Source: a virus. Taken from it: a stretch of DNA of 64,000 nucleotides. Every line of letters starts with the position of its first letter. Position 1 is the stretch's first letter. The notes beneath the pieces were generated by a model. That model saw only the letters and a program-made list of their open reading frames with translations, had not been told where the DNA came from and did no database searches. Of the stretch, positions 24,727 to 25,256 are shown in pieces. The stretch lies in IMG/VR virus record IMGVR_UViG_3300045988_122518; one strand, given 5' to 3'. The position numbers and the translations under genes are program-made.

Positions 24727-25256
24727 GCAGGTGTAGTACAATGGCTAGTGCATCGGCCTTCCTTCCGAATTTTATAAATTGTTAATTGTTATGGAATTGA
24801 CAACTCAACAAAAAGGTATTACTACTGAGATGTATGTTGCTGCTTATTTGTTATCTCTTGGTTATAATGTATCTCAACCTTTATGCCAAGATAGCAAATA
24901 TGATTTAATTGTTGATGTAAATAATCATCTTTTGCGATTACAAGTAAAAACCGCAAGACAAGAAAAAGAAGGTTCTATTATATTTAATTGCAGAAGTACA
25001 ACAAAAAATTCAATTACACATAAATCTCGTTCATATCAAGTAGATGAAATTGATTATTTTGCTACTTACTGGGATCATAAAGTATATTTAGTTCCAGTTG
25101 GAGAATGTTCTTCATCAAAAACTTTACATTTAACCTTACCAGTTAAATCTAATCAAACATTTATTGGAGATTGTTTAGCAGAGGAGGTTTTACGAAATTT
25201 ATAAAACATTGGAAGGTAAGCCGAGAATGAGGGTTCGATCCCCTTCACTTGCTCCA
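24727..25256 (+). tRNA. tRNA-Gly (UCC) gene interrupted after anticodon position 36 by a 455-nt ORF-containing insertion
   Basis: 5' part GCAGGTG-TA-GTAC-AATGGCTA-GTGC-A-TCGGC-CTTCC; 3' part AA-GCCGA-GAAT-GAGGG-TTCGATC-CCCTT-CACTTGC-T-CCA; acceptor 7 bp (one G-U); anticodon stem TCGGC/GCCGA perfect; joined loop CTTCCAA and the GCTCCA 3' end match E. coli tRNA-Gly(UCC). Confidence 0.55.
24779..25204 (+). CDS. intron-encoded PD-(D/E)xK nuclease-like protein (homing-endonuclease candidate)
   Basis: 141-aa ORF entirely inside the tRNA-Gly insertion; motif YDLIVD...LRLQVKT fits a PD-(D/E)xK core; comparable to I-Ssp6803I, which is also encoded in a tRNA intron. Confidence 0.4.
   Translation: MLIVMELTTQQKGITTEMYVAAYLLSLGYNVSQPLCQDSKYDLIVDVNNHLLRLQVKTARQEKEGSIIFNCRSTTKNSITHKSRSYQVDEIDYFATYWDHKVYLVPVGECSSSKTLHLTLPVKSNQTFIGDCLAEEVLRNL

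Follow-up and report, generated by a model that had tools for sequence, protein, structure and literature searches.

Phage tRNA genes interrupted at position 36/37 by an element encoding a predicted homing endonuclease: possible tRNA introns without a ribozyme

Introduction

Can a phage tRNA gene that is interrupted directly behind its anticodon by an endonuclease gene still give rise to a tRNA, and if so, by what means? The question is raised by a tRNA-Gly(UCC) gene in the window (the whole stretch of DNA analysed here, 64 kb in length), which is phage-like in character, rich in AT, and holds an extended array of tRNA genes (15 tRNAs including a CUA suppressor, as called by ARAGORN in default mode). 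Bacterial introns and those of bacterial viruses are taken to splice themselves (group I or group II), and enzyme-dependent tRNA splicing is regarded as a hallmark of archaea and eukaryotes. Should the element described below be spliced, it would point to a tRNA-splicing pathway in phages or their hosts that has gone unnoticed.

The interrupted tRNA-Gly gene

A first, sequence-only reading of the window had proposed that tRNA-Gly(UCC) is split after position 36 by 455 nt, and this is borne out by alleles of the same gene that lack the insert. The locus consists of the following features:

24610-24638, plus strand: sigma-70-like promoter (TTGACA, 17 nt, TATAAT; 12 of 12 consensus matches) about 90 nt upstream of the tRNA, the only perfect site in a region where the number of consensus-promoter sites is not above the shuffled expectation
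24727-24762, plus strand: exon 1 of tRNA-Gly(UCC), nt 1-36, the last three being the anticodon U34 C35 C36
24763-25217, plus strand: intron or insert between tRNA nt 36 and 37, 455 nt, missing in sister contigs
25218-25256, plus strand: exon 2 of tRNA-Gly(UCC), nt 37-76, beginning A37 A38, CCA encoded

When joined, the exons form a 75-nt tRNA-Gly(UCC) with a normal cloverleaf, which ARAGORN accepts. An exact search with the 3' exon found the identical tRNA, uninterrupted, in seven of seven IMG/VR phage contigs (L001-L007; 65-197 kb). In their flanks these contigs match the window at 95-99% identity, on one side as far as C36 and on the other from A37 onward. Because the intron-less flanks match the window in this way, the insert is exactly 455 nt, and because the junctions share no bases, its boundaries cannot be slid. 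Both halves of the tRNA had also been described as intact: the joined molecule is indeed canonical, while perfect pairing of the acceptor stem does not hold, as it contains one G.U pair.

The gene is easily misread. ARAGORN missed the tRNA-Gly gene in default mode, and in intron mode called it a tRNA-Thr(UGU) with an intron at 34/35. That reading fits the U...G rule of group I introns and is ruled out by the intron-less alleles, as are readings of the junctions as Arg-UCU and Thr-GGU.

The encoded endonuclease

The insert contains one reading frame:

24791-25204, plus strand: ORF of 137 aa, predicted homing endonuclease of the I-Ssp6803I family (PDDEXK_5), assigned by homology, fold and motif; stop codon TAA at 25202-25204

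The ORF had been read as 141 aa from a TTG at 24779. The frame is real, and its start is placed at the ATG at 24791 (MELTTQQKG...), since homologs begin there. Its earlier assignment as a PD-(D/E)xK nuclease can be narrowed to the I-Ssp6803I type, as 2OST (I-Ssp6803I) is the best match in both sequence and fold (Pfam PF11645). The ORF has the family sequence, the fold and the catalytic D...QxK motif of I-Ssp6803I/PDDEXK_5, and the residues Y37 D38 ... D42 ... Q51 V52 K53 are invariant among its relatives. From its family membership it is predicted to be a homing endonuclease. Indirect signs of cleavage of intron-less alleles and of homing are the presence or absence of the insert with exact boundaries among close relatives, and an apparent co-conversion scar in L061/L062.

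Related elements in other phages

The insert is not alone: it belongs to a set of at least 40 elements that interrupt phage tRNA genes at 36|37. A profile-guided scan of IMG/VR gave 44 loci with PDDEXK_5 relatives, of which ARAGORN in intron mode and a junction search placed 34 inside tRNA genes; five of five loci from GTDB MAGs and most of those from Logan/ENA are nested as well. Where several readings of the junctions were possible, the one giving a canonical variable-loop length was chosen, a criterion that is independent of the intron helices. Simpler searches were far less productive: an exact-pattern scan of metagenome contigs gave chance matches only, a single-sequence scan of viral contigs found no relatives, and one of 41 matches in a 15-mer scan of viral contigs was a true locus.

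Among the nested loci the insertion lies at 36|37 every time, across nine host isoacceptors (Gly-UCC, Thr-UGU, Thr-AGU, Asn-GUU, Ser-GCU, Lys-UUU, Val-UAC, Ile-GAU and Ala-UGC), of which Ala-UGC was contributed by the GTDB MAG loci and the other eight by IMG/VR. Inserts measure 445-490 nt, with three exceptions of 657-674 nt, and the ORF is intact in most family members. Logan/ENA contigs encode proteins 61-85% identical to the window ORF, inside a diverged tRNA-Gly(UCC) and at the same junction. One cultured phage, Enterococcus phage EFP01, carries a 463-nt element at 36|37 of tRNA-Asn(GUU), and its joined exons equal the tRNA-Asn gene of EFDG1 base for base. There are 31 matching Enterococcus phage records, two of which are EFP01 itself; the insert region is skipped in the 29 sister records, most of which have the tRNA-Asn annotated. 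No description of such a family was found in the searchable literature. It appears to be a widespread and undescribed family of phage tRNA-gene elements, and we regard the anatomy and the family as described here as almost certain.

RNA structure at the ends of the insert

The two ends of the insert had been seen to pair with one another and with exon 1, a claim that is upheld by covariation across 26 distinct relatives. The end complementarity first noticed is part of a larger structure made up of two helices (H1 and H2) and a loop between them:

24760-24768, plus strand: H1 5' strand, consisting of the anticodon (24760-24762) and intron nt 1-6, with the 5' junction inside the helix
24769, plus strand: 5' side of a conserved asymmetric internal loop, an unpaired A (the same base in at least 90% of the aligned elements, 26 in all)
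24770-24780, plus strand: H2 5' strand, TTTTATAAATT, in the 5' UTR of the ORF; partner 25196-25206
25196-25206, plus strand: H2 3' strand, overlapping the last ORF codons and the TAA stop
25207-25208, plus strand: 3' side of the conserved internal loop, unpaired C and A, within the motif RCA-TTG
25209-25217, plus strand: H1 3' strand, in which TTGGAA faces intron nt 1-6 and GGT faces the anticodon, with the 3' junction at its base

In the window, 24761-24768 (C35-C36 and intron nt 1-6) pair with 25209-25216, leaving a mismatch between U34 and U25217, so that two of the three possible pairs between anticodon and intron tail are formed, and A24769 lies opposite C25207-A25208. The same architecture was returned for 27 of 27 cofolded elements, namely the anticodon stem, a small internal loop (nt 32-33 against 37-38), H1, the A/CA loop and H2. 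Across the family, the final 9-10 bases of the intron are paired in H1 with nt 34-36 and the first 6 or 7 intron nt, the asymmetric loop has A facing CA (motifs CAA-A-CUY and RAG-CA-UUG), and H2 (5-12 bp) joins the 5' UTR to the end of the ORF. About three unpaired bases are conserved.

The final three bases of the intron complement the anticodon of whichever tRNA the element resides in. Tail triplets are GGU for UCC, ACA or AUA for UGU, AGC for both GCU and GUU, GUA for UAC and GCA for UGC, and the pairs of positions 34-36 all covary. In a gapless alignment of the 26 distinct elements, 90.1% of the cells of 15 intron pairs are paired, and changes on both sides are seen in 15 of 15. The covariation score is 0.825, whereas shuffled alignments score 0.242 (0 of 500 reach the observed value) and slid registers no more than 0.19. 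Covariation across the family is also seen in the five pairs of H2 that are closest to the loop.

The positions of the junctions within this rod are regular. Counted from the base of H1, the 5' junction is 3 bp into the helix; the 3' junction is on the opposite strand, at the base itself, which gives a stagger of 3 nt toward the 3' ends around the duplex of anticodon and tail. H1 is one bp shorter in the Gly-type elements and in one Ser-type element, which rules out the conserved internal loop as a ruler for the junctions; these are therefore fixed relative to the tRNA and not to the loop. A GGAGG box near the 3' end of the intron was considered as a permuted ribosome-binding site after circularisation and rejected, its spacing being too long.

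The geometry of the junctions could also be read at the level of DNA, with the terminal repeats extruding as a hairpin or cruciform that an Hjc-like nuclease cuts, the element then being removed or moved. I-Ssp6803I cleaves its DNA target to either side of the anticodon, leaving a 3-nt 3' stagger, and the 3-bp duplex flanked by the junctions here would match that stagger. G.U combinations in the helices outnumber A.C by 35 to 10, however, a 3.5-fold excess that would be expected of sense RNA and not of DNA hairpins, and which points to a sense-strand RNA structure. The helix, moreover, takes in bases of exon 1 only and lacks the symmetry of a cruciform junction, and the intron-bearing allele has been assembled stably in many metagenomes. 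We consider excision at the DNA level highly improbable.

Absence of a recognisable ribozyme

If the rod is RNA, the next question is whether the RNA could splice itself. The element had been called too dense in coding sequence for a group I core, and this is confirmed by comparison with the group I intron in the tRNA-fMet gene of Synechocystis, in which 655 nt hold the 150-aa ORF of I-Ssp6803I and about 205 nt are left for the ribozyme core. A conserved group I core (P3-P9) takes up at least about 180-200 nt, and the window element has 41 non-coding nt, 28 before the ORF and 13 after it. In 23 relatives the third-codon positions are variable from one end of the ORF to the other, and the ORF hides no RNA constraint. 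The three inserts that reach 657-674 nt do so because their ORFs are longer, with no additional RNA, and they were ruled out as carriers of an RNA core by the C-terminal, DNA-binding-like extension of these ORFs.

The junction bases also depart from group I rules. In place of the U.G pair, the last base of the 5' exon is C36, which pairs with G25215; throughout the family it is position 36 of the anticodon (C or U) that closes the exon, Watson-Crick paired in every aligned element. The earlier observation that the intron does not end in G is correct: its last base is U25217, and in relatives this base is A, C, U or G, covarying with position 34, so that no terminal omega-G is kept.

Searches against the intron and ribozyme families of Rfam gave no match, either for the window element (E<=10) or for 16 related loci (E<=0.05). 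The group I model RF00028 matched neither the window nor the 16 relatives, a negative that is weak alone because the same model misses the probable group I intron of a neighbouring tRNA. The latter, 349 nt long, separates U34 from A35 of tRNA-Leu(UAA), has G as its last base and is not in sister contigs; the tRNA-Leu(UAA) insert in L006 carries an HNH ORF. This neighbouring insert is very probably a group I intron.

Judged by its sequence, then, the window element is not a group I intron. Self-splicing in a wider sense would require a reduced or atypical group I intron with a core overlapping the ORF, or a tiny new ribozyme built from the rod, possibly assisted by the tRNA body. Such a view can draw on the occurrence of the same endonuclease family inside a true group I intron of tRNA-fMet, on the position of the 5' junction in an exon-intron helix with a guide-like strand (as in group I P1), and on the insensitivity of the Rfam model in this setting. 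It has to contend with the scarcity of non-coding sequence, with synonymous sites that are free throughout the ORF, with junction bases that follow the anticodon and have neither the U.G pair nor the terminal G, with longer versions that are merely longer ORFs, with a mere three or so conserved unpaired bases, and with the lack of any small-ribozyme match at the thresholds given above. We therefore think self-splicing quite unlikely. The sequence-only reading had cautioned that it saw no clear splicing mechanism and that this might be a new one, which was well placed, given that there is no ribozyme match, no RNA constraint inside the ORF and no published description that we could find.

Intron or selfish insertion

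A simpler alternative is that nothing is spliced at all, the element being a selfish insertion that inactivates a dispensable tRNA, with the rod serving the endonuclease transcript (release from the polycistronic tRNA precursor, end protection or control of translation). Carriers are rare, which fits a recent and possibly costly invasion: one of the eight closely related contigs (the window and L001-L007) has the insert, which is thus polymorphic within one phage population, and EFP01 is the only carrier among the Enterococcus records. At four orphan loci (L058, L212, L218 and L223) an anticodon-arm-like stem is retained with the H1 and H2 hairpins and no tRNA body, and because of these the rod may serve the endonuclease mRNA and not restoration of the tRNA. 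In one further copy (L061/L062) the anticodon stem is broken, apparently as a co-conversion scar from a window-like donor. PDDEXK_5 genes also stand free next to tRNA genes in cultured phages.

Against this, the tail matches the anticodon in nine tRNA types, which would be unneeded for the mere protection of an mRNA end. The exons, too, have stayed canonical where a dead tRNA should decay: seven Gly-type host tRNAs are 61-85% identical to one another and all form canonical cloverleaves, while their resident endonucleases have diverged to 54-85%; the exons are still canonical where the resident endonuclease is down to 54-60% identity. In one member (L014) the endonuclease ORF has in-frame TAG codons at conserved Gln positions, and it has therefore evolved inside a TAG-recoded phage. 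Finally, the interrupted gene in the window is the only tRNA-Gly in a tRNA-rich stretch of 64 kb. Repeated fresh invasion of intact alleles could be another source of healthy-looking exons. We regard a purely selfish insertion as possible but somewhat unlikely.

Splicing would be favoured both by a tail that tracks the anticodon across nine tRNA types with junctions always at 36|37, and by canonical exons kept over a long residence despite the divergence of the endonuclease. From these patterns of sequence conservation, the element is rather likely to be a spliced intron.

A possible route to the mature tRNA

Cleavage and ligation by protein (or by an RNP) is the most economical route because there is no ribozyme and there are only about three conserved unpaired bases. 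The fuller reading, in which the element is a mobile tRNA intron without a ribozyme that is spliced by proteins, we hold at even chances. It would work as follows. At the DNA level, the nuclease would cut the anticodon-loop DNA of empty alleles and the element would be copied in. In the precursor RNA, H1, the A/CA loop and H2 would lengthen the anticodon arm into a rod of some 20-25 bp, the ORF forming the loop at its end. A protein endonuclease would then cut one strand of the rod at C36|U and the other, 3 bp away, at U|A37, the halves would be kept together by the tRNA body, and an RNA ligase would reseal the anticodon loop. Sealing and healing could fall to the phage's own ligase, kinase and phosphoesterases, encoded 10-20 kb downstream, and the released intron would be the endonuclease mRNA. 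Within this scheme we infer the cleavage, the ligation, the identity of the enzymes and the end chemistry.

No bacterial enzyme is known to cut a helix of this kind with a 3-nt stagger. As sole cutters, RNase III, RNase P and RNase Z were rejected by reasoning from their known geometries, each of which misses at least one junction by 1-3 nt. RNase III leaves overhangs of 2 nt, against the 3-nt offset of the window junctions, and RNase P could explain the 5' cut only. A more specific proposal is that the intron-encoded PD-(D/E)xK enzyme also recognises the rod in its own transcript and cuts it with the 3-nt stagger of the DNA cut, after which the exons would be resealed by a generic RNA ligase. 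This would fit the presence of the family in very different phages, and the orphan hairpins suggest that the tRNA body is dispensable. The parallel with the DNA cut makes the intron's own nuclease a candidate, though we consider this specific idea unlikely.

Comparison with known systems

The closest relative by protein is the tRNA-fMet intron that encodes I-Ssp6803I, with which the element shares the endonuclease family, a target in the anticodon loop and presumed spread by homing. The two differ in that the tRNA-fMet intron lies at 33/34 and has a core, whereas the window element lies at 36|37, has junctions that depart from the U...G rule and has no detectable core.

In overall design the element resembles the bulge-helix-bulge (BHB) introns of archaea and eukaryotes, which likewise need no ribozyme and, where they carry an ORF, leave only short flanks around it; an exon-intron helix sets the splice sites, the anticodon pairs with the intron, and an endonuclease and an RNA ligase would be needed. 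Some archaeal BHB introns carry homing-endonuclease genes, e.g. the Desulfurococcus 23S rRNA intron encoding I-DmoI. There are nonetheless clear differences. BHB introns have two 3-nt bulges separated by a 4-bp helix, whereas the window family forms one continuous helix without bulges in 27 of 27 folds. A BHB reading of the element was tried and rejected, as no threaded register gave two 3-nt bulges 4 bp apart and the cofolds show a continuous helix. BHB introns in tRNA genes lie at 37|38, and the nucleases of ORF-bearing ones are of the LAGLIDADG type, as opposed to 36|37 and an I-Ssp6803I-type nuclease in the phage element. No homolog of tRNA_int_endo/EndA was found among the 30 ORFs of at least 150 aa and ten others searched within the 64 kb of a genome of 160-200 kb.

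Free-standing endonucleases of phage tRNA clusters share the neighbourhood and the choice of tRNA genes as targets (SegB), and the PDDEXK_5 members belong to the same protein family. T4 SegB and the PDDEXK_5 genes of HSTV-4, Kuttervirus SM5 and Vibrio phage AG74 occupy the spaces between tRNA genes and leave these whole, whereas the element of the window sits inside the anticodon loop with a covarying helix that incorporates the anticodon. The intervening sequences of 23S rRNA, which are removed by RNase III, are also non-ribozyme inserts with a long end helix that a host nuclease can cut. Their removal leaves the rRNA fragmented and unligated, whereas a tRNA nicked in the anticodon loop would not decode.

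Splicing of this family, if it occurs, would bear on the origin of protein-spliced introns, which have long been proposed to be group I introns that lost their core. If the intron protein cuts its own RNA, the system would be a counterpart in bacterial viruses of the archaeal EndA/bulge-helix-bulge system and, if true, could bridge homing endonucleases, Holliday-junction resolvases and tRNA-splicing endonucleases, which have one common fold. The family also bears on homing endonucleases with readily re-targeted specificities for tRNA genes, and on the annotation of tRNAs, as standard tRNA finders miss or mis-assign such genes. As EFP01 places one element in a cultured phage, the question of splicing is directly testable.

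RNA-repair genes in the window

RNA ligases and repair modules are common in large phages, and a spliced intron would bear on the role of these genes as well. The window encodes several candidates downstream of the tRNA:

35461-36267, plus strand: RlaP-like nucleotidyltransferase, candidate partner (PF10127 at E=8e-5, just under the curated cut-off; phrog_388 at 6e-21)
37386-38120 and 43621-44340: further metallophosphoesterases
38835-40211, plus strand: ATP-dependent Rnl-type RNA ligase (PF09414), candidate exon sealer
45095-45625, plus strand: P-loop kinase AAA_33, candidate RNA end-healing enzyme
45610-46170, plus strand: metallophosphoesterase directly after the kinase, candidate RNA end-healing enzyme

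A connection of the ligase, kinase and phosphoesterases with the intron is presumptive, and the RNA-repair genes are not specific evidence for splicing because phages with tRNA arrays often carry them for other reasons. Aligned across 96% of its length, the RNA ligase is 47.5% identical to one annotated in a Bacillus phage. Macro-domain, NADAR and PIN-PhoH proteins are also encoded near the RNA-repair genes.

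Further inserts in the anticodon loops of viral tRNAs

The tRNA-Gly(UCC) element is not the only anticodon-loop insert in this group of viruses. The tRNA-Lys(UUU) gene at 25636-25710 is uninterrupted in the window, and its counterpart in three sister contigs (L002, L003 and L006) is split at U34/U35 by an insert of 68 nt. This insert is a tRNA-like minihelix, whose acceptor stem of 7 bp (GATGAAA/TTTTCAT) is accompanied by a T-arm (GAGTTCAAATCTC), a discriminator G and CCA. Both of its ends fall at tRNA-processing sites. It is a second class of mobile anticodon-loop insert, distinct from the tRNA-Gly element.

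Two further interrupted tRNAs were found in the window using the intron mode of ARAGORN:

6298-6460, tRNA-Pro(UGG), a good prediction, 87-nt insert
7201-7399, tRNA read as Glu(UUC), possibly Gln, 123-nt insert

The tRNA-Pro insert is itself scored as a tRNA by Rfam (6332-6415, 35 bits), while the 123-nt insert has tRNA-like ends (TCAAAA.../...TTTTGA) and a T-arm-like hairpin. Both look like a tRNA within a tRNA, with putative junctions.

The tRNA-Leu(UAA) gene (23525-23961) is interrupted between U34 and A35 by a 349-nt insert which has no ORF and ends in G. The insert is missing from three sister contigs (L001, L004 and L007). The L006 version measures 738 nt and contains an ORF for an HNH endonuclease. 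Both the position of the tRNA-Leu insert (U34/A35) and its terminal G are those classically seen in group I introns. A scan of it with Rfam RF00028 gave no match at E-values up to 1. Directly downstream of this intron-bearing tRNA-Leu is a RAGATH-33 RNA (RF03102; 23975-24103), which at 123 bits is slightly over the gathering score.

Orphan hairpins, a broken anticodon stem and another setting of PDDEXK_5 genes

Some relatives of the tRNA-Gly element lie outside any complete tRNA. In these orphan copies (loci L058/L059, L212, L218 and L223), the endonuclease ORF, the H1 helix (formed in the nested elements by the anticodon and intron start with the intron tail), the conserved A/CA internal loop and the second helix, H2, sit inside a long hairpin, the base of which resembles an anticodon stem-loop (e.g. 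CUGC-UUUGU|...|AA-GCAG in L218). No D-arm, T-arm or acceptor stem is present, and the hairpins are tightly placed amid normal tRNA genes.

The intron-bearing tRNA-Gly of L061/L062 (~1436-1990) is broken in another manner: the acceptor stem is still paired, but the anticodon-stem strands are not (5' CATGC vs 3' GCCGA), and the 3' strand GCCGA is as in the window. The mismatch resembles a co-conversion tract, such as homing from a window-like donor would leave behind. Close to this tRNA-Gly are another PDDEXK_5 gene and a GIY-YIG gene.

In the archaeal Halorubrum virus HSTV-4 (locus L227, 693-1290), a tRNA-Asn is followed by a PDDEXK_5 gene, on either side of which the T-arm and the 3' portion of the acceptor of that tRNA recur as a direct repeat. 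This arrangement differs from that of the nested elements of bacterial phages.

The GGAGG box and probable TAG recoding

Most elements of the family lack a Shine-Dalgarno sequence ahead of the ATG and have a GGAGG box close to the 3' end of the ORF (within the last 28-41 nt of the element; 25182-25188 in the window). Lys-type elements (those in tRNA-Lys) differ, with GGAGG or GAGGTG immediately 5' of the start codon. In the Thr-type elements of tRNA-Thr the box is kept in two different reading frames. The box near the element 3' end might serve as a permuted ribosome-binding site once the element is circularised, though the spacing seems too long. In Enterococcus phage EFP01 (locus L057), the intron-bearing tRNA-Asn is followed after ~500 nt by a full-length ROOL RNA (RF03087, 265 bits; 2130-2716).

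The window encodes a suppressor tRNA with a CUA anticodon (7663-7752), and the endonuclease ORF of a related phage (L014, 1501-1920) has in-frame TAG where glutamine is conserved. Taken together, these sequences point to TAG-to-Gln recoding in this phage group.

An island of RNA-repair and NAD/ADP-ribose genes

The region 28244-53034 is an island of genes for RNA repair and NAD/ADP-ribose metabolism.

Predicted proteins of the island (within 28244-53034 unless coordinates are given)
DUF2828/DUF7788 protein
major-vault-protein-like protein, 832 aa, with MVP shoulder and Vault_3 domains
RlaP-like protein
RNA ligase
macro-domain (DarG-like) protein(s)
NADAR protein(s)
kinase and three metallophosphoesterases
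SPFH/flotillin protein
49959-50939, radical-SAM/SPASM maturase, apparently split
PIN-PhoH protein
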